Positions 32,208 through 59,123 of a DNA stretch of 64,000 nucleotides are shown here, piece after piece. Under the pieces are notes generated by a model that did no database searches, had not been told where the DNA came from, and saw only the letters and a program-made list of their open reading frames with translations. Position 1 is the stretch's first letter. Each line of letters opens with the position of its first letter. Source of the stretch: an uncultured Holophagales bacterium (GTDB lineage: Bacteria > Acidobacteriota > Thermoanaerobaculia > Multivoradales > UBA5704); assembly GCA_963842525.1 (NCBI GenBank), contig CAWJGT010000009.1, forward strand, positions 1,600,001-1,664,000, written 5' to 3'. The position numbers and the translations under genes were made by a program.

Positions 32208-32623
32208 CCTGCTGCGGCGACAGGGTCTGGTGAGACAGGGAGACAGCGCGAGCCTGCTTCGAATGATACCTCGGAGGCGGAGGTCCGCAGCACGGGCGGC
32301 AGATCCGCCACGGACGTTCTCCTCGCCCGGCAGGGGCTGGAGAGCGACCCGCGGCTGGATCTCCTGGGCTGCACCGCACACCTCTACGAGATCACTCCTT
32401 GGATGACGGCAGACCGGGAGGGCTCACCGCCTCGGCCTTATGGCGGCAGCCCGGCGCTGCGACGCCGCAGGGATCCGTTCCTGCGTAGCTTCCGCCTTCC
32501 GCTTCCTCGACCGGCGGAGCCACCGAAGGGAAGCCTTGACGCGTGCCCACCCGAGCCGTGGGAAAGGCTAGGAGCCTGTCGGGAAACCCCTCCCCAGTGT
32601 CGAGAGGTGGTAAAATTGTCGGC

Positions 32624-33078
32624 ATGGAAACAACCCGGTTCCGCAGCTACGCACTCGGCCAGCTGTTGCTTCTACCTCCGGACCTGCGGGATTGGTTGCC
32701 CGAGGACCACTTGGCGTACTTCCTGCTCGATGTGGTCAGCGAATTGGATCTTTCCGAGATCTACTCCTCCTACGACGGCTCGCGTGGGGGGCGGCCAGGA
32801 TTTGACCCACGGCTGATGGTGGGATTGCTGCTGTACGGCTACTGCCTGGGAATCAGTAGTTCTCGCAGAATTGAGAAGGCTACCTACGAGAGCGTGCCAT
32901 TCCGAGTTATGGCGGCCAACCAGCATCCCGATCACGACACCATTGCGGATTTCCGGCGGCGCCACCTGAAGGCTCTATCCCGTTTGTTCGTTCAGGTCCT
33001 GCGTCTGTGCCAGCAAGCAGGTTTGGTGAAGTTGGGCCATGTGGCTCTGGACGGTACGAAGATGCGAGCCAATGCTTC
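32624..33078 (+). pseudogene. IS1182 transposase, N-terminal fragment
   Basis: LLPPDLRDWLPEDHLA, SSRRIE, PDHDTIADFRRRH and ALDGTKMRANAS, cut at the nested insertion. Confidence 0.92.
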
Positions 33079-33275
33079 TGTAGACGCCCGCCTTATTTCG
33101 TGACCGCCGCCTGAGTTTTTCCCAGTTTTCAGCGTGGTCAGGTAGATTCGTCGGCGCAGGAGTGCGGGACGATTTTGCCTGTGGAGAGGTCGGGCAAGGC
33201 AAGCGAAGCCCGCCGGGCTCTCCTTGTGTCTTTTGGCGGACCGGGGATGACCCGACGGGCTTCCGAGAGGAGGCC

Positions 33276-33839
33276 ATGTTAAGTCTGAAGGGCGTGGGCT
33301 GCAAGCAGTATCGAGAGCAGATGGACGGCGGGGCGGTTCCCGAGCTGAGCTGCCCGGATCCGGATTGTCAGAGGACCCGTCTGCGGGGCCACGGCTCCTA
33401 CAAGCGCTTCCTCGCAGGAGTGCTTCAGGCCTTGCGGCGGGTGCGGTGCCCGCGTTGCAGGGTCAGCCATGCGGTGTTGCCGGAGGACGTGTGCGCCTAT
33501 CGCGATTTGACCTTGGCGGCCGTGGAGGCGGGTCTGGCTGCGGGGAGTCCGAGCGAAGGCGCCGAGGTTTCAGGGCAGTGCGGCAGTTCGGGGGTGCGGC
33601 GGGTGCGGGGTTGGCTGCGCAGCGCGCACGAGCCCTTTGCCGCCAAGCTGCAGGCGCTGCTGGGGCCAGTGCCGGCTCCGTGGTGGCGGGGGGCGCAGGA
33701 GGTGGTGGGCCAGGCGGCGGGTTGGTTGACGCGGCTGCGGCACTTTCTGTGGTCGTCCTGGGGCTGCTTTTTCGGCGGAGTGAGCGGACTGTTCCGCCAC
33801 GGCCGGCCGTCCTGGCGGTCAGGGGAGGCCTCTCCATAG
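33276..33839 (+). CDS. Zn-finger accessory protein of the transposon (DUF6431-like)
   Basis: GAGGAGG RBS; CPDPDC...GHGSYKR...RVRCPRCRVSHAVLP. Confidence 0.75.
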   Translation: MLSLKGVGCKQYREQMDGGAVPELSCPDPDCQRTRLRGHGSYKRFLAGVLQALRRVRCPRCRVSHAVLPEDVCAYRDLTLAAVEAGLAAGSPSEGAEVSGQCGSSGVRRVRGWLRSAHEPFAAKLQALLGPVPAPWWRGAQEVVGQAAGWLTRLRHFLWSSWGCFFGGVSGLFRHGRPSWRSGEASP

Positions 33840-33930
33840 GTTGGTAACTACCCATCGCAGGGTTCTGCCACGAAGCTACTGGCGGGGGCTGTGGGATGGT
33901 CCCAGAGCCCGATTGCGGAGACTTCGTGCG

Positions 33931-35259
33931 ATGGATGAGAGCCAAAGAGAGCAGATTGCGTTGTTTCGCCACAGCGTCATTGCCGAGCTGATCAGCCGGC
34001 CGTTGGCGCCACGCGAAAAAGAGAAGCTGTTGTGTGCGATCGCGGAAAAGACGTGGACGATCCCGGGCAGCGCGCGCAGCCACGTCGGCCGTTCAACGGT
34101 GCGAGATTGGCTCGAGCTGTACCAGATCCATGGGTTTGAGGGGCTCAAGCCGGGCCCGCGTACCGATGCCGGGCGCTCGCGGGCGATCCCGGAGGAGGTG
34201 CAGGATCTGCTGCTGGCGCTGCGGGCCGAGCGGCCCGGTGCTTCGCTCGACAGCCTGATCCGCGCCGTGCATCTGTGCGGCCGCTTTGCGCCCAATCTGC
34301 GGCTGTCGCGCAGCAGCGTGCACCGCTTCTTCGCCGCCCAGGCGGTGCCGGCCCGCCAAGGGTCCAGCGCCGAGCCGGACGCTTTGGCTTTCACCTTTCC
34401 GCATGTCAACGACCTGTGGACCTCCGACCTGATGCACGGGCCCCGCCTGCTGGTGCCGGGGCGCAAGGACGGCGGCAAGACCTACCTCTACGCCTTCCTC
34501 GATGACGCCTCGCGCATGGTGCCGTTTGCCGCCTTCTACCTGGCCGAAAACGCCGCCTGCTTCCAGGACGCTCTGAAGCAGGCTCTGCTGCGCCGCGGCC
34601 TGCCGCGACGGCTCTACTGCGACAACGGCGCCACCTTCCGCACCCACCACCTGCAGGTCATCTGCGCCACGCTGAACATCTCCCTGGTCCACTCCCGGCC
34701 CCACAAGCCGCGCGGTCGCGGCAAGATCGAGCGCTTCTTCCGCCACGTCCGCACCGCCTTTGTCCCCCACCTCACCAGCGAGGTCCTCGCCGATCTGGCC
34801 CAGCTCAACCGCGTCTTCTGGGCCTGGCTGGAGGGCGAGTATCACCAGACTGCCCACGGCGGCCTGGACGGGCAAACGCCTCTGGACCGCTTTCTGAAGG
34901 ACCAGGCCCTGATCCGCCCGGCCCCCGAGCACCTGGAGGCCTGGCTGCGCATGAAGGTCACCCGCCGGGTCGGCCGCGACCGCACCGTCCACCTCGACGG
35001 CCGTCTCTATGAGGCTCCCGATGGCTATGCCGGTGAGACCGTCGACGTCCTCTACGATCCCTATGACCCCGCCCGGCCCGTCCACTTTTGCCGCAAAGGC
35101 CAGAGCGCCGAGCTGCCTCTGCGCCGGCTCGACCTCGCCACCAACGCCACCCTGCGCCGACTCGAAAGAAACAGCGAGCCGGCCAGAGAAGCGCCCACCA
35201 CCGGCATCAGCTACCTCGAGCTCATCGCCAAGAAGTTCTATCAGGGGGAGCCCCAGTGA
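33931..35259 (+). CDS. DDE transposase/integrase (rve core, N-terminal HTH, Mu-transposase-like C-terminus)
   Basis: LWTSD, FLDDASR, LYCDNGA and GKIERFF catalytic motifs; RRVGRDRTVHLDGRLYEAP tail. Confidence 0.92.
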   Translation: MDESQREQIALFRHSVIAELISRPLAPREKEKLLCAIAEKTWTIPGSARSHVGRSTVRDWLELYQIHGFEGLKPGPRTDAGRSRAIPEEVQDLLLALRAERPGASLDSLIRAVHLCGRFAPNLRLSRSSVHRFFAAQAVPARQGSSAEPDALAFTFPHVNDLWTSDLMHGPRLLVPGRKDGGKTYLYAFLDDASRMVPFAAFYLAENAACFQDALKQALLRRGLPRRLYCDNGATFRTHHLQVICATLNISLVHSRPHKPRGRGKIERFFRHVRTAFVPHLTSEVLADLAQLNRVFWAWLEGEYHQTAHGGLDGQTPLDRFLKDQALIRPAPEHLEAWLRMKVTRRVGRDRTVHLDGRLYEAPDGYAGETVDVLYDPYDPARPVHFCRKGQSAELPLRRLDLATNATLRRLERNSEPAREAPTTGISYLELIAKKFYQGEPQ

Positions 35260-36061
35260 ACCTCTATACCACCGCCTTCGGCTTCACCCGGCCGCCCTTC
35301 CACGGCCCCCTCACCGCCGACTCTCTGTTTCGGCCTCAGGGGCTCGAAGAGCCCACAGCCGTCTGCGCTACCTGGTCGACTCCAGGGCCATCGGCCTGCT
35401 CACCGGCGAGCCGGGCAGCGGCAAAACCACCGCCCTGAGGCGACTGCGCGACGATCTCCACCCCGACCAGGTGCGCGCTGTGTACCTGCACGACACCCTG
35501 GTCAACCCCGCCGACTTCTGCCGCCAACTCGCCCTTGCACTCGGCCTCCAGCCCGAATGGTCTCGCGCCATGACCTTCCGCCTCGTCCAGCAAGAGATCC
35601 AACGCCTCGTCAAAGACCGCCACATAACCGTCCTGCTCATCGTCGACGAAGCCCACAACCTCAGGCCCGACGTCCTCGCCCTCTTCCCCCTGCTCGCCAA
35701 CTTTGAATGGGACGCAGAAGGACGGCTTGCCTTTCTCCTGGCCGGTCAATCCGGATTGCGACAGATCCTGCGCCTGTCGCATCTGGAGGCCCTCGCTCAG
35801 CGCATCACCATCCGCTTCACCCTGCGCGGCTTCGACCGAGACACCACCTGCTGCTACCTCGAACATCGCCTCAAGATCGCCGGCCTGGATCGACCCCTCT
35901 TCACCGCCCCCGCCCAGGAAGCCCTCTTTGAAGCCTCCCAGGGCATCATGCGCAGAATCGACACCCTGGCCCACCACGCCCTGGCCGCCGCAGCCACTTC
36001 CAGAGCCAAGCTCGTCGAGCCCGAGCACGTCCTGCAAGCCGCCGAGGAGATGCGCTCATGA
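35256..36061 (+). CDS. ExeA-like AAA+ ATPase (transposition helper), frameshift near 35351
   Basis: GTG start overlaps the transposase stop; FGFTRPPF, Walker A GEPGSGKT, Walker B LLIVDEAH, LAGQ and LAQRI. Adding one G gives LEEAHSRLRYL. Confidence 0.88.
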
Positions 36062-36300
36062 ACACACCCGAACCCATCCTCGACTACCTGCAAAACCAGG
36101 TCCCCGAGTACCCGTTCGATCGCAAGCTCGACGAAGAGTTTGTCGACGAGCTGATCGCAGACTTCCAGGATCTCAACATTCTCGAGGAGACCAAGACCTT
36201 CAGGTGGTATCACAACAACCGGCCGGCCGCCCGTTTCAAGAACGTCCGTGTCGGCCTGCGGCGCTGGATTGCCAACTCCTGGGCGCGAAGACCAGAATGA
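36058..36300 (+). CDS. Small hypothetical protein (80 aa), fourth gene of the transposon
   Basis: ATGA overlap with the ATPase stop, GAGGAG upstream, normal composition, lies inside the element ends. Confidence 0.75.
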   Translation: MNTPEPILDYLQNQVPEYPFDRKLDEEFVDELIADFQDLNILEETKTFRWYHNNRPAARFKNVRVGLRRWIANSWARRPE

Positions 36301-36457
36301 ATCAAAGCAACTGCTGAAAACTCGGCCCCTTCGGTCAAAAACAGTCCCGGATTCCACCGCCACCCGGCCCAATCCGGGACTGCTCTCTTCCCCCTTCTGT
36401 CCGCCACGAAATATTTCGAAAAGGTGGCCACGGAATTACGCGGGACTCGACAGCTTC

Positions 36458-37389
36458 AAAACACAAGGCGATGAATTACGGACGGATGGAAGAGAAGATC
36501 GCCGAGTTGGAGGCGCAGGTGAAGGAGCTTCTGGACGAGGCTGAAGCGGTGGATACAGCCGAAGACGCTCGTCACGGCAAGGGGCGTCGAGGCGAAGAGT
36601 TGCCGGAGGAGCTTCGTTGGCGTCAGCAGCGGTTGGAGAAAATCCGGCAAGCCAAGGCGGCGCTGGAGGCTCAGGCGCAGGCGCAAGCCGAGGCACAGCG
36701 GCCGAAAGAGCTTGAGCAGAAGCCGTCTGCCCCAGAGTCTGGAGGCGAAAATGAGGAAGCTCCCTCGCCGGCTCCAGTTGCGCGGCCTGCTGAGAAGGCG
36801 CAACGCAACTTCACCGATCCAGATTGATTCGCGGATCATGAAGGATGGGGCGACGAAGTCGTTCGAGCAGTGTTACAACTGCCAGGCGGCGGTCGATAAC
36901 GAGGCTCAGGTCATTGTGGCGGCGCAGGTGACCCAGCAAGCCAACGACAAGCAGCAGGTTGAATCGCTGATCGAGCAGATGAAGACCAATCTGGAAGGTG
37001 AAAAGCCGCGTGTCGTGAGCGCAGACACGGGCTACTACAGTGAAGACAACGTAAAGTATTTGGAAGGCGAGCAGATCGAGCCATATGTGGCGACGGGACG
37101 TCAAAAGCACGGAGCCGACACCCCCGCACCGCGAGGCCGGATTCCTTCGCGTGCGACGCCGAAGGAGCGAATGGCTCGCAAGCTGCGGACTGTGAAAGGC
37201 AAGCGGGAGTATTCGAAGCGCAAAGAGACGGTGGAGCCGGTGTTTGGCCAGATCAAAGAGGCTCGTGGCCTGCGGCGGTTCCTCTTGCGAGGCTTTGCAG
37301 CCGTCCAGGCAGAATGGAGCTTGATCTGCCTGACACACAACCTGTTGAAGTTGTTCCGGAGCGGGTGGAGTCTGCCGGTGGCCTCCTGA
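36458..37389 (+). pseudogene. IS1182 transposase, C-terminal fragment with a 4-bp duplication frameshift
   Basis: NFTDPD-SRIMK broken by GATTGATT at 36822-36829; YNCQAAVD, SADTGYYSE, KRKETVEPVFGQIK and RFLLRG motifs. Confidence 0.92.
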
Positions 37390-57572: not shown

Positions 57573-59123
57573 TCAGCAGGAGACCTTGGTGTTGCCCGTG
57601 TTGTAGGTGGTGCAGGAGAGCGGGTTCGTGACGTCCGAGAAGTTGATCGAGGTCGAGGCTGCATTGAGGCCGCTGGTCCCCTGCCGCTGGAAGTGCAGGT
57701 GATCGCCGCAGCCGTTCTTCGTGCAGCAGGTATTGCCCGTATGGCCCTCCATCGCCATCTTGCACCCCACGGTGACCGACTTGCCGTTCCAGACCGAAAT
57801 CGAGGTATGGCGCAGATGGGTGTACTTGGTGTAGGTGCCGTCGGCGTGCGAGAGGATGATGACGTTGCCCCAGCCGCCGTTGCTGGCGCAGGAGGCCGAG
57901 TAGTCGACGCAGCCGGTCTTGTCGATCGCGTTGCAAGTGCAGGAGGTGTGCACATACACCACCGATCCCGCCGCCGCGGCCAGGATCGCCTCGTTGCCCA
58001 CCACCGCCTGGAAGTCGTAGGCATAGGACAGGTTGCCGGTATGGCTCGAGACGTTGCACTTGGTGGAGTAGCTCGCGCCTACTTGGGTGCATGTCAGGTC
58101 GGGGCTGAACGACTTGCCCATCGGCAGCTTGTAGCTCACAGGTGCCGCCTCGACCAGGGTCGAGACCTCGCCGCGCTTCGACAGATAGCGCAGCAGCACG
58201 CCGTTTTCGGTCAGCTCCTTGTAGGCCACGCCCGTCGGGAGGACCGCGACCAGGCGCTGGGCCTCCACCGCGGTCACCTGGGTCCCGTCCGGCCCGAGCA
58301 GCGCCAACCGGGACGCTCCCAGGACGTTGTCGCCCTCGACGGCATAGCCGCCGGCCATCTCGCTGCGGAACGGCTGGGCATCGGCATTGGGCGACCAGTG
58401 CGCGAGCCGGCTGATGAGCCGGGGCAGTTGGAAGGCTGCGGCCTGCCGGACCGCCGCAGCGGGACCCACCGGCAGCCTGTGCTCCTCGACCTGCGGTACC
58501 GGGTACTTCTGCTCCGTCATGAGGGGAGCGCCCTCGAAATAGACGTCCAGCCCGCCGCCGGCGGGAGCCCAGCTCAGATAGTCCGCCACGACGCCGGACG
58601 GGCGGACGACCTCGACCTCGCCGCTCACCACATCGGCCAGCGCGACACCGAACGCGTCGCCCGACGAGAAGGTGTAGGCGATCCGGCTGTCCCCTGTGGG
58701 CGACCAGGCGGCAGTGATCACGAAATGGCCGTCGCGATTGATCCTGCGGGTCTTGCCGCGCCGTTCGACGATCAGATCTCCGCTGGGGACGAGGTCCGCC
58801 ACGGCCTTGCTGTCCGCCTCGGCCCTGGTGACGCTCCGGCGGCCGCTCGACGCGCTCGCATCCACGGCAGCCAGAGTGGTATAGGCCAGCCACCGTCCCT
58901 CTGCGGACCTGCCGGTGTAGGACAGGACCGGGAACACGGTGTTCACCTCCACCGCCTCCGGAGTGCCGCGGCGGAGCCGCAGCTCGTAGGCCGTGCCGCC
59001 GATGCCGACCGGCCACCGCTCCGTCCGCCGGGCTTCTTCGCACCGAGCGACGGAGGGGGCGAGAATCCCTGACGCGACGATAGCAAGAAGAAGACCTTTC
59101 CTGAGAGATCGATGCGCAAGCAT
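57573..59123 (-). CDS. Secreted protein with C-terminal Cys-rich M23 peptidase domain
   Basis: Signal peptide; WSP/WAP propeller-like motifs; SHTGNLSYAYDF, GWGNVI, YTHL and HLHF. Confidence 0.85.
   Translation of the reverse strand: MLAHRSLRKGLLLAIVASGILAPSVARCEEARRTERWPVGIGGTAYELRLRRGTPEAVEVNTVFPVLSYTGRSAEGRWLAYTTLAAVDASASSGRRSVTRAEADSKAVADLVPSGDLIVERRGKTRRINRDGHFVITAAWSPTGDSRIAYTFSSGDAFGVALADVVSGEVEVVRPSGVVADYLSWAPAGGGLDVYFEGAPLMTEQKYPVPQVEEHRLPVGPAAAVRQAAAFQLPRLISRLAHWSPNADAQPFRSEMAGGYAVEGDNVLGASRLALLGPDGTQVTAVEAQRLVAVLPTGVAYKELTENGVLLRYLSKRGEVSTLVEAAPVSYKLPMGKSFSPDLTCTQVGASYSTKCNVSSHTGNLSYAYDFQAVVGNEAILAAAAGSVVYVHTSCTCNAIDKTGCVDYSASCASNGGWGNVIILSHADGTYTKYTHLRHTSISVWNGKSVTVGCKMAMEGHTGNTCCTKNGCGDHLHFQRQGTSGLNAASTSINFSDVTNPLSCTTYNTGNTKVSC

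Follow-up and report, generated by a model that had tools for sequence, protein, structure and literature searches.

A compact, probably Tn6049-like transposon with a DUF6431 gene in an uncultured Holophagales bacterium

What kind of mobile element consists of genes for a zinc-ribbon protein, a DDE transposase, an AAA+ ATPase, and a protein of just 80 amino acids? These four genes lie side by side in a 64,000-nucleotide stretch of contig CAWJGT010000009.1 (hereafter, the window) from an uncultured Holophagales bacterium (assembly GCA_963842525.1, phylum Acidobacteriota). The initial annotation, which was made from the sequence alone, took them to be a Mu/Tn7-like transposon of a poorly described family and suggested that the zinc protein or the small protein might select targets as TniQ does. 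We compared the element with the other copies in its genome, with related loci in other bacteria, and with the known families of transposons. We conclude that it is very probably one copy of a compact Tn6049-like transposon, from a branch whose members include a gene for a DUF6431 protein.

The element and its closest named relative

Direct reading of the sequence reproduced the annotated boundaries exactly (Table 1). The element's first letters are TGTAGACGCC at 33079 (TGTAGAC...), its last letters are GGGACTCGACA at 36452 (...CTCGACA), and the 5-mer GCTTC is present on both flanks, as had been described. The Mu/Tn7-like nature of the element also holds up: it encodes a DDE transposase with a Mu-type C-terminal (Mu-C) domain along with an AAA+ ATPase, and it combines TG..CA ends with a 5-bp duplication.

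The only named relative that we found is Tn6049. In Cupriavidus metallidurans CH34, Tn6049 is described as a 3.5-kb element with 12 copies, all of which have the ATPase gene gspA (PMC2864759). On the Pseudomonas aeruginosa plasmid pHS87a, its ends are given as 12 bp long (TGTGCaTaAGCA), with a repeat of 4 bp (PMC4739549). We used the published ends to locate the copy on pMOL28, which is 3517 bp long (versus 3374 bp for the element in the window), has TGT/ACA ends, and is flanked by a duplication of TATGG. In both elements, the duplication is short (4–5 bp for Tn6049), and four co-directional genes with overlapping stop and start codons encode, in the same order, a Cys-rich protein, a DDE transposase, an AAA_22 (“gspA”) ATPase, and a small protein. 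The gene products have 187, 442, 268, and 80 amino acids in the window and 181, 479, 277, and 90 amino acids in the pMOL28 copy. The transposases are homologous (27% over 440 columns by BLASTP, E = 1.5e-38), and so are the ATPases (28% over 245 columns, E = 2.6e-17). Given the same gene order, similar sizes and ends, a 5-bp duplication, and homologous transposases and ATPases, a named element with this organization exists, which counts against the reading in the initial annotation.

The element is, instead, a new member of a type of transposon that has been named but not categorized; a 2018 paper states that Tn6049's module for transposition “could not be categorized” (PMC6210171). The family is indeed poorly described. 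Our search of the literature on DUF6431, on Tn6049, and on combinations of IS481, ExeA, TniB, TniQ, AAA ATPases, and zinc ribbons found no paper that defines the family or that defines the ends, gene set, or mechanism of elements of this type.

Several observations weigh against this classification. The grouping with Tn6049 depends on two of the four genes and on the layout: the first and fourth proteins of Tn6049 have no significant similarity to those in the window (by BLASTP, phmmer, or hmmsearch). When we used hhalign to compare a 23-row profile of the first protein (orf1) to a 22-row profile of the first protein of Tn6049, the probability was 0.8% (E = 0.067); the alignment pairs both Cys pairs as well as a “..RW” helix that resembles part of a helix-turn-helix (HTH) domain. 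The Tn6049 protein is also Cys-rich and has a “..TLKRW” helix, and it is not a member of Pfam's DUF6431. For the fourth protein, the profile of orf4 gave a probability of 1%. Unlike the transposase in the window, the transposase of Tn6049 has no match to Mu-transpos_C at E ≤ 0.1, and the terminal sequences of the two elements differ beyond TGT. Furthermore, in a transposase tree of 18 rows, the DUF6431 subclades, Tn6049, the Tn552-like transposases, and a single canonical IS481 row form a polytomy in which only shallow clades are supported. This tree has long branches for Salmonella (4.56), IS481 (3.14), and Tn6049 (2.5). Two other points concern DUF6431. The window's own orf1 scores 24.3 bits against the Pfam model (PF20020), below the gathering cut-off of 26.6 bits, and DUF6431 is not exclusive to the element: in genome G279 (see below), there are DUF6431 genes with no homolog of the element's transposase within 1.5 kb.

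Table 1. Coordinates of the element and its features in the window
Feature	Position	Strand	Remarks
Whole element	33079-36452	.	3374 bp, TGT...ACA ends
Left target duplication GCTTC	33074-33078	.	Same 5-mer at 36453-36457
Left terminal inverted repeat TGTAGACGCCCGCCTTATTTCGTGACCGCC	33079-33108	+	With putative transposase site L1
Putative site L1, core ATTTCGTGA	33095-33103	+	Conserved in relatives
L2, second (gapped) left-end repeat TTTTCAGCGTGGTC	33126-33139	+	Conserved in L013, L014, L023, L027, and L028; partly in L035/L036
TAGATTCG box upstream of orf1	33143-33150	+	Possible promoter element
orf1, zinc-ribbon protein (187 aa), DUF6431 family	33276-33839	+	Zinc ribbon, then an HTH-like segment of three helices, then a helical C-terminal part
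tnp, 442-aa DDE transposase	33931-35259	+	HTH, rve core, and Mu-C beta-barrel (Pfam HTH_32/HTH_28, rve, Mu-transpos_C)
AAA+ ATPase gene (AAA_22, ExeA/GspA-like)	35256-36061	+	268 aa when intact; frameshifted in the window copy
orf4, 80-aa four-helix protein	36058-36300	+	Matches nothing in Pfam or NCBIfam
Hairpin or palindrome CAGTCCCGGATT...AATCCGGGACTG	36342-36382	+	12-bp stem; between orf4 and the right end
R2, inner right-end repeat (ATATTTCGTGG on the - strand)	36404-36414	-	Motif match at 36404-36412
Right terminal inverted repeat (reverse complement TGTCGAGTCCCGCGTAATTCCGTGGCCACC)	36423-36452	-	With site R1 at 36428-36436
Right target duplication GCTTC	36453-36457	.	Same 5-mer at 33074-33078

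A core of three genes and a variable fourth slot

Homologs of the transposase are numerous: when 8000 candidates were scored, at least 1479 homologous clusters had E ≤ 0.001. Many of these are on contigs of 3.3–3.6 kb, which is the size at which a repeated element of this kind collapses in assembly. From contigs representing one genome per species, we collected 42 related loci from 22 assemblies, mainly of Acidobacteriota but also of Gemmatimonadota, Myxococcota, Planctomycetota, Pseudomonadota, and Treponema. At every one of these loci, the ATPase gene follows the transposase gene; tblastn detects it in 41, whereas in L048 it is matched only by a profile, across the first 135 positions. A DUF6431 gene lies upstream of the transposase gene in each of the 37 loci that keep this region (35 by tblastn and two by profile); as for the other five loci, four start inside the transposase gene and one is a truncated copy.

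The fourth gene is less constant. A homolog of orf4 is present in 32 of the 42 loci. By similarity, it is missing from three distant loci and from one truncated copy, and in six loci (L029–L034) its slot is occupied by a different conserved open reading frame (ORF) of about 135 amino acids and of no identified family (at about 3140–3560 in L031, for example). Distant relatives have no fourth gene or an unrelated small ORF. Because the L029/L033 clade is nested inside orf4-bearing lineages in the transposase tree (supports of 95/96 and 88/92), the fourth gene was probably exchanged in the L029–L034 clade. The core of the element is three genes (DUF6431, the DDE transposase with its Mu-C domain, and the AAA_22 ATPase), and the fourth slot is variable. 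Conservation of the accessory genes, which the initial annotation named as a check on its reading, is thus borne out for the zinc-protein gene and not for the 80-amino-acid gene.

The same three genes are annotated on plasmids. We found DUF6431, a DDE integrase or IS481 transposase, and an AAA ATPase in this order on plasmids from Cupriavidus necator, Geobacillus, and Streptomyces. On a plasmid from Acidithiobacillus caldus, the DUF6431 and DDE genes are annotated but the expected place of the ATPase gene is a gap with no listed gene, and on a Rhodococcus plasmid, the first gene of the module is unnamed. Two of these plasmids have a fourth ORF of 65 amino acids and the others have none. The plasmids in which the first three genes are syntenic are from Pseudomonadota, Bacillota, and Actinomycetota; overall, the trio is present in at least six phyla. 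A 2026 preprint also describes a DUF6431-DDE-AAA cassette with 15 copies in Clostridium sp. JS66, and leaves the cassette unnamed where it is described.

The window's orf1 has the sub-threshold score given above; among its relatives, all 23 of the aligned sequences match the DUF6431 family at E ≤ 1 (the best is 1.6e-10), and PF20020 is precomputed for most of 120 listed homologs. A profile search for orf1 found 1865 representatives at 50% identity. The invariant residues in the alignment include C26, C31, C58, C61, and H65, and a strong Shine-Dalgarno sequence (GAGAGGAGG) precedes the ATG. In a structure predicted with AlphaFold2 (mean predicted local distance difference test [pLDDT] of 88.7), a beta zinc ribbon is followed by helices, with residues 80–118 resembling a three-helix DNA-binding unit, and by a helical C-terminal part. 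Among 50 listed Foldseek matches of this model in the Protein Data Bank (PDB), the best are CarD and MqsA (E = 0.14) and none has E ≤ 0.001. With DUF6431 excluded, its nearest relatives in the ESM Atlas are unnamed clusters from Pseudomonadota of 170–182 amino acids, which we treat as a lead only.

Within the source phylum, we found DUF6431 in six of 301 sampled genomes, one of which has as many as 17 copies. A mobile element would be distributed in this way, patchily and in multiple copies. In the five genomes besides the source genome, DUF6431 adjoins a homolog of the transposase in four and adjoins genes for DnaG-like primases in the fifth. Genome G279 has two such arrangements (392-1809 of locus L061 and 165-1944 of locus L071), in which DUF6431 is directly upstream of primase genes with a CHC2 zinc finger and a Toprim domain. 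DUF6431 is thus used in a second genetic context, which is possibly another mobile element.

The zinc-ribbon gene is a core gene of this type of element, and we think that its product, with its HTH-like segment, is most likely a DNA-binding accessory protein or a regulator of the element. We favor this over a target selector like TniQ because DUF6431 occurs outside the element and because we saw no target specificity (described below). There is about an even chance that the protein binds the ends or the promoter, and it is rather doubtful that it plays a TniQ-like adaptor role.

The transposase gene begins 91 bp after orf1, with ATG at 33931, which gives a protein of 442 amino acids, the typical length of its homologs. 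The catalytic residues (D166, D231, and E267) are invariant across the 16 transposases that we aligned, among them the enzymes of Tn6049 and Tn552. By sequence, the best solved relative is TnsB from ShCAST, a type V-K CRISPR-associated transposon (E = 4.7e-6), across the core and the beta-barrel. The ATPase matches Pfam's AAA_22 with 91.8 bits; its Walker A (G54, G56, and K57) and Walker B (D131 and E132) residues are invariant in 14 of 14 sequences, and its nearest solved chains are Cdc6/ORC proteins. The GTG start of the ATPase gene (35256) overlaps the stop codon of tnp (GTGA), and the ATG of orf4 (36058) overlaps the stop codon of the ATPase gene (ATGA). Because of these overlaps, the three genes are probably translationally coupled.

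As for orf4, 24 columns are invariant in an alignment of 13 sequences. Its AlphaFold2 model has four helices (pLDDT of 75.6) and gave no usable fold match when compared to the PDB with Foldseek (best E = 1.2). In the ESM Atlas, the nearest clusters are unnamed; a “putative RepA” cluster (0.95) and a cluster with a DnaT domain (0.87) are leads only. None of the four ORFs matches TnsA or a resolvase or recombinase family in Pfam or NCBIfam, and the size of the element leaves no room for another gene.

Copies, insertion sites, and ends

The source genome (9.95 Mb in 34 contigs, 96% complete) contains several copies of the element. Using the 3374-bp element as the query, we found 14 matches, of which six are full length (3373–3375 bp) and lie at different sites. 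The others include one copy that is ended by a contig edge (on contig C22), one rearranged copy (C34), one relic (C3), and two short weak matches. Across the six full copies, just four of 3375 alignment columns vary, and four of the copies are identical. The near-identity of the copies shows that the element was active recently in this genome. The six copies are flanked by duplications of 5 bp (GCTTC, GATGG, TCGAG, and TCTGG), 4 bp (CCGG), or 6 bp (CCGCGC). They lie in an IS1182-type gene (the copy in the window), in a gene with WD40 and pentapeptide repeats, beside a group II intron reverse transcriptase, and beside a TIR-domain gene; the remaining sites have no Pfam match.

The copy in the window lacks a T after 35352 that is present in the five other copies, which shifts the frame of its ATPase gene after residue 32; a collapsed contig from the public sequencing run X1 carries this T. 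A second difference that is private to this copy is synonymous: it has A at 34095, where the others have G. Another copy (C9:1514678-1518050) has a 2-bp deletion in orf1. The ATPase gene is therefore intact in five of the six copies (the one at C19:520330-523704, for example), and four of the six are fully intact. The four-gene content that was first described (zinc ribbon, DDE transposase, AAA ATPase, and 80-amino-acid protein) is correct for the element, with the qualification that the ATPase gene is frameshifted in the copy in which it was described. As judged from its sequence, this copy would be unable to make its ATPase and could be mobilized in trans by the four fully intact copies.

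If the element and one GCTTC are removed in silico, then an IS1182-type reading frame is restored across the junction (...DGTKMRANAS / KHKAMNYGRMEEK..., i.e., ...KMRANAS/KHKAMNYGRM...). In Pfam, the left part of the interrupted gene matches DUF772 and the right (distal) part matches DDE_Tnp_1 and DDE_Tnp_1_6. The target of this insertion is therefore the transposase gene of an insertion sequence (IS) of the IS1182/IS5 type. This host IS (32543-33078 and 36453-37389) seems to have its frame split a second time, as the ORFs at 36471-36827 and 36712-37389 overlap in different frames, so it may have been dead before the element arrived.

Contigs assembled from public runs provide another view of the insertions. 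In three of four runs (X1, X2, and X3), contigs break exactly at 33079 and/or 36452 and continue with other flanks, one of which is the flank of the copy on contig C8. A contig from run X2 contains a related IS1182-type gene without an insertion at the corresponding place (with a loose end at 36459). When we searched metagenome contigs with the right end alone, we found 16 matches, and all 14 that have sequence beyond the end have different, unrelated flanks. We found no head-to-tail junctions, as expected for circles or tandem copies, among the joints in the contigs of the four runs, and there were no matches in metagenome contigs for the right end followed by 0–12 nt and the left end, but contigs cannot reveal rare intermediates.

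The source genome also contains other pieces of mobile DNA. The rearranged copy (C34:123430-125392; loci L008, L010, and L012) has positions 1-1694 followed directly by inverted pieces of 2130-2417. The older relic (C3:733040-734093; L009 and L011) consists of two pieces, about 270 bp apart, and has 82% identity to the element's first 787 bp; a diverged relative resided in this genome earlier. About 1 kb from the copy at C9:825337, there is another rve-type transposase gene (C9:823650-824393, L107; a 495-amino-acid frame with a weak match to the IS481 model). This copy is also the one that adjoins a group II intron reverse transcriptase, so mobile DNA is clustered there.

To describe target sites more broadly, we used 29 of the loci (the rearranged L026 had been left out beforehand). 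We could delimit 28 of them, as L028 was missed by the pattern, and 27 have both flanks. Multi-copy elements in related metagenome-assembled genomes (MAGs) have the same TGTAG..CGACA ends. The duplications are of 5 bp in 15 of the insertions, 6 bp in three, and 4 bp in one; the other eight of the 27 have no duplication. The bias among the fifteen 5-bp sites is only weak: 12 of them have G at position 5, and 10 have C at position 2. There was no common target gene, strong consensus, or attachment site among the insertions in the source genome and the 27 loci with two flanks. Instead of a direct repeat, the insertion at L126 has flanks of which one is nearly the reverse complement of the other (..GAGAAGAACCCG / element / GACGGGTTCTCC..).

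The two termini are imperfect inverted repeats that match at 21 of 30 positions. The core motif ATTYCGTG is at positions 17–24 of the element as read from either end, with the CGTG in register at positions 21–24. At the right end, there is a second core 24 bp further in, and at the left end, a gapped second copy lies 34 bp further in. The longer motif ATTYCGTGR has four exact matches in the window, versus 1.18 expected, and three of 100 shuffled sequences reached four matches. Three of the four matches are within 50 bp of the element's ends and are inverted (33095-33103 on the + strand; 36404-36412 and 36428-36436 on the - strand). The repeated end motif that was noted initially is thus real, with one exact copy at the left and two at the right, plus the gapped copy at the left. 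Relatives of the element keep this arrangement. The only other exact occurrence of ATTTCGTGA, at 58718-58726, is distant from the element and is probably due to chance. Transposases of the Mu, Tn7, and Tn552 types use asymmetric ends with several internal sites, and by analogy, L1, L2, R1, and R2 would be the binding sites of the transposase. A generic repeat search of the region found chance-level repeats only and missed the short terminal motif.

Two other non-coding features may be functional. The TAGATTCG box upstream of orf1 is present in 10 of 12 left ends of DUF6431-type relatives; L028 has TAAATTCG, L033 has TAGATCCG, and L029 lacks the box. A sigma-70 scan identified no promoter at this box. 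Across the element, the scans for sigma-70 promoters and terminators identified only one promoter-like site (inside orf4) and one terminator-like site (inside orf1), neither of which is sensibly placed. Between orf4 and the right end, RNAalifold predicts a conserved hairpin of 14 pairs from eight relatives, and four of the pairs have compensatory changes. This sequence may act as an RNA hairpin or as a DNA operator. Rfam has no matches at E ≤ 1 in the region 32900-36600.

Other known families and a proposed mechanism

Could the element belong to a better-known family instead? The strongest of the alternatives is that it is a minimal Tn7/Tn5053-like element whose DUF6431 protein is the functional equivalent of TniQ, so that it would bind a feature of the target and recruit the ATPase, which would recruit the transposase. 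The two groups do share a heteromeric system with a TnsB/TniA-like transposase and an AAA+ regulator. In the element, a core gene for a small zinc-ribbon and HTH-like protein is found beside genes for a transposase whose nearest solved relative is TnsB and for an ATPase of the ORC clade. Elements of the Tn7-like and Tn5053 (Tn402) groups are described as having TGT/ACA ends, several internal transposase sites, and a 5-bp duplication (PMC11406308, PMC4739549), and one Tn7-like element, Tn5469, is described as having no cargo and just one TniQ (PMC11406308). However, none of the 23 members of the orf1 family matches TniQ (PF06527) at E ≤ 1, neither TniQ nor TnsD appears in the list of 50 Foldseek matches, and a comparison of the ATPase to Pfam gave no match to the TniB family at E ≤ 0.01. 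The element also lacks TnsA, a resolvase, and a shared attachment site (we saw only the weak bias within the duplications), and its transposase is much shorter than the matched TnsB chains (584–596 residues). Also, DUF6431 is found beside primase genes outside of the element. (We searched the source genome for TniQ and found no match, but control genomes also gave none, so this search was uninformative.) We consider this alternative unlikely, and neither the family of the zinc protein, nor its predicted fold, nor the insertion sites support the suggestion that it picks targets in the manner of TniQ.

A second alternative is that the element is a Tn552-family transposon without its serine resolvase, which would transpose replicatively through cointegrates that are resolved by host recombination. 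Tn552-type modules from Staphylococcus aureus, Granulicella, and Sphingomonas have a Mu-C-type DDE transposase of 466–480 amino acids followed by an AAA ATPase of about 270 amino acids where it is full length (the ATP-binding protein from Sphingomonas is annotated as shorter). These transposases are 24–29% identical to the one in the window and their DDE residues align with it. But Tn552-type modules encode a serine recombinase (L059, L060, L094, and L092) and have neither DUF6431 nor orf4, and Tn552 itself has bla as cargo; conversely, the four ORFs of the element include no recombinase, with no space for another gene. The tree, in which only shallow clades are supported, neither joins nor separates the element and the Tn552 clade, and 19 of the 27 insertions are simple, with intact duplications. 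Overall, we judge this alternative to be improbable. One of the compared modules, on an IncF plasmid of Salmonella enterica (L092, 513-3679), has a recombinase, a 554-amino-acid “IS481 family transposase,” and a 341-amino-acid “ExeA family protein.” It is a larger variant of the transposase-ATPase pair and explains many of the 373 matches on Salmonella plasmids.

The element shares the working principle of IS21 (IstA/IstB) and phage Mu (MuA/MuB), in which a DDE transposase is aided by an ATP-dependent DNA-binding partner that is encoded just downstream. Unlike IS21, its transposase scores only 57.2 bits on the IstA model NF033546 (the cut-off is 160), and its ATPase is an ORC/Cdc6-like AAA_22 protein, with IstB_IS21 (PF01695) not among its 12 Pfam matches at E ≤ 0.01. 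Unlike Mu, it has no phage genes.

Finally, it is highly improbable that the element is an IS481-family IS whose transposase acts alone, with the zinc protein, the ATPase, and the small ORF as passengers, because the ATPase and DUF6431 genes are kept beside the transposase gene across phyla and down to 33–37% identity, and because the start and stop codons of the transposase, ATPase, and orf4 genes overlap. The HTH and rve regions of the transposase are closest to the IS481 model (NF033577, its best match in NCBIfam), and the annotation pipeline PGAP labels relatives, including those in Tn6049 and Geobacillus, as “IS481 family transposase.” TGT/ACA ends are also described as typical of IS481 elements (PMC11406308). 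However, the score of 185.1 bits (186.5 for the genome copies) is below the curated cut-off of 224, and the Mu-C domain lies beyond the region that matches IS481 (residues 70–351 of a 472-amino-acid ORF from an upstream TTG). An IS481 element, by ISfinder's definition, is a single transposase gene in 1–1.3 kb; the element in the window has three further genes and is about 3.4 kb. The one canonical IS481 transposase that we compared has 330 amino acids and no ATPase neighbor.

We return to the Tn6049-like transposon as the preferred reading. By analogy with the families involved (Mu, Tn7, and Tn552), we propose that the transposase uses its N-terminal HTH domains to bind a pair of ATTYCGTG-type sites at either end. 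It would expose the 3'-OH at the terminal CA and join both ends to the target with a 5-bp stagger. The ATPase, made by translational coupling to the transposase, would bind target DNA with ATP and activate or direct the transposase, much like MuB, TnsC, TniB, or p271 of Tn552, and the 80-amino-acid protein would be a lineage-specific helper.

Because there is no resolvase and no TnsA, and because most of the insertions have intact duplications, the end product of movement is probably a simple insertion and not a stable cointegrate. A replicative route seems less probable. The eight insertions without duplications count against simple insertion, and two of them, L015 and L017 from one Thermoanaerobaculaceae MAG, have reciprocal half-duplications (CCTCT/GGGAT and GGGAT/CCTCT). 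These swapped flanks fit an inversion or exchange by recombination between copies; they also fit intramolecular replicative transposition, as expected under the Tn552-like alternative.

A bolder view is that the DUF6431-DDE-AAA trio is a minimal, ancestral-looking heteromeric transposon that links IS481-type insertion sequences to Tn552, Tn7, and Mu. The zinc-ribbon/HTH protein would then be an adaptor between the target or the ends and the ATPase, analogous to TniQ but with a different fold; the variable fourth gene, which here encodes the helical 80-amino-acid protein, would be the place for factors that supply DNA replication or recruit it; and the element would copy itself without a resolvase. 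We regard this combination of ideas as distinctly unlikely.

This type of element is common, yet annotation pipelines name its genes separately, as “IS481 family” or “DDE-type integrase,” “AAA family ATPase,” and “DUF6431.” With a length of 3.4 kb, a DDE transposase that is assisted by an ATPase, and no resolvase, TnsA, or cargo, such an element would be a small and tractable system. It could reveal how the ATPase and a zinc-ribbon accessory protein each contribute to the choice of target, and it would also place DUF6431 in a functional context. For the source genome, the element is an active source of gene disruption and rearrangement: of its six full copies, one is within another IS and another is within a gene with WD40 repeats.

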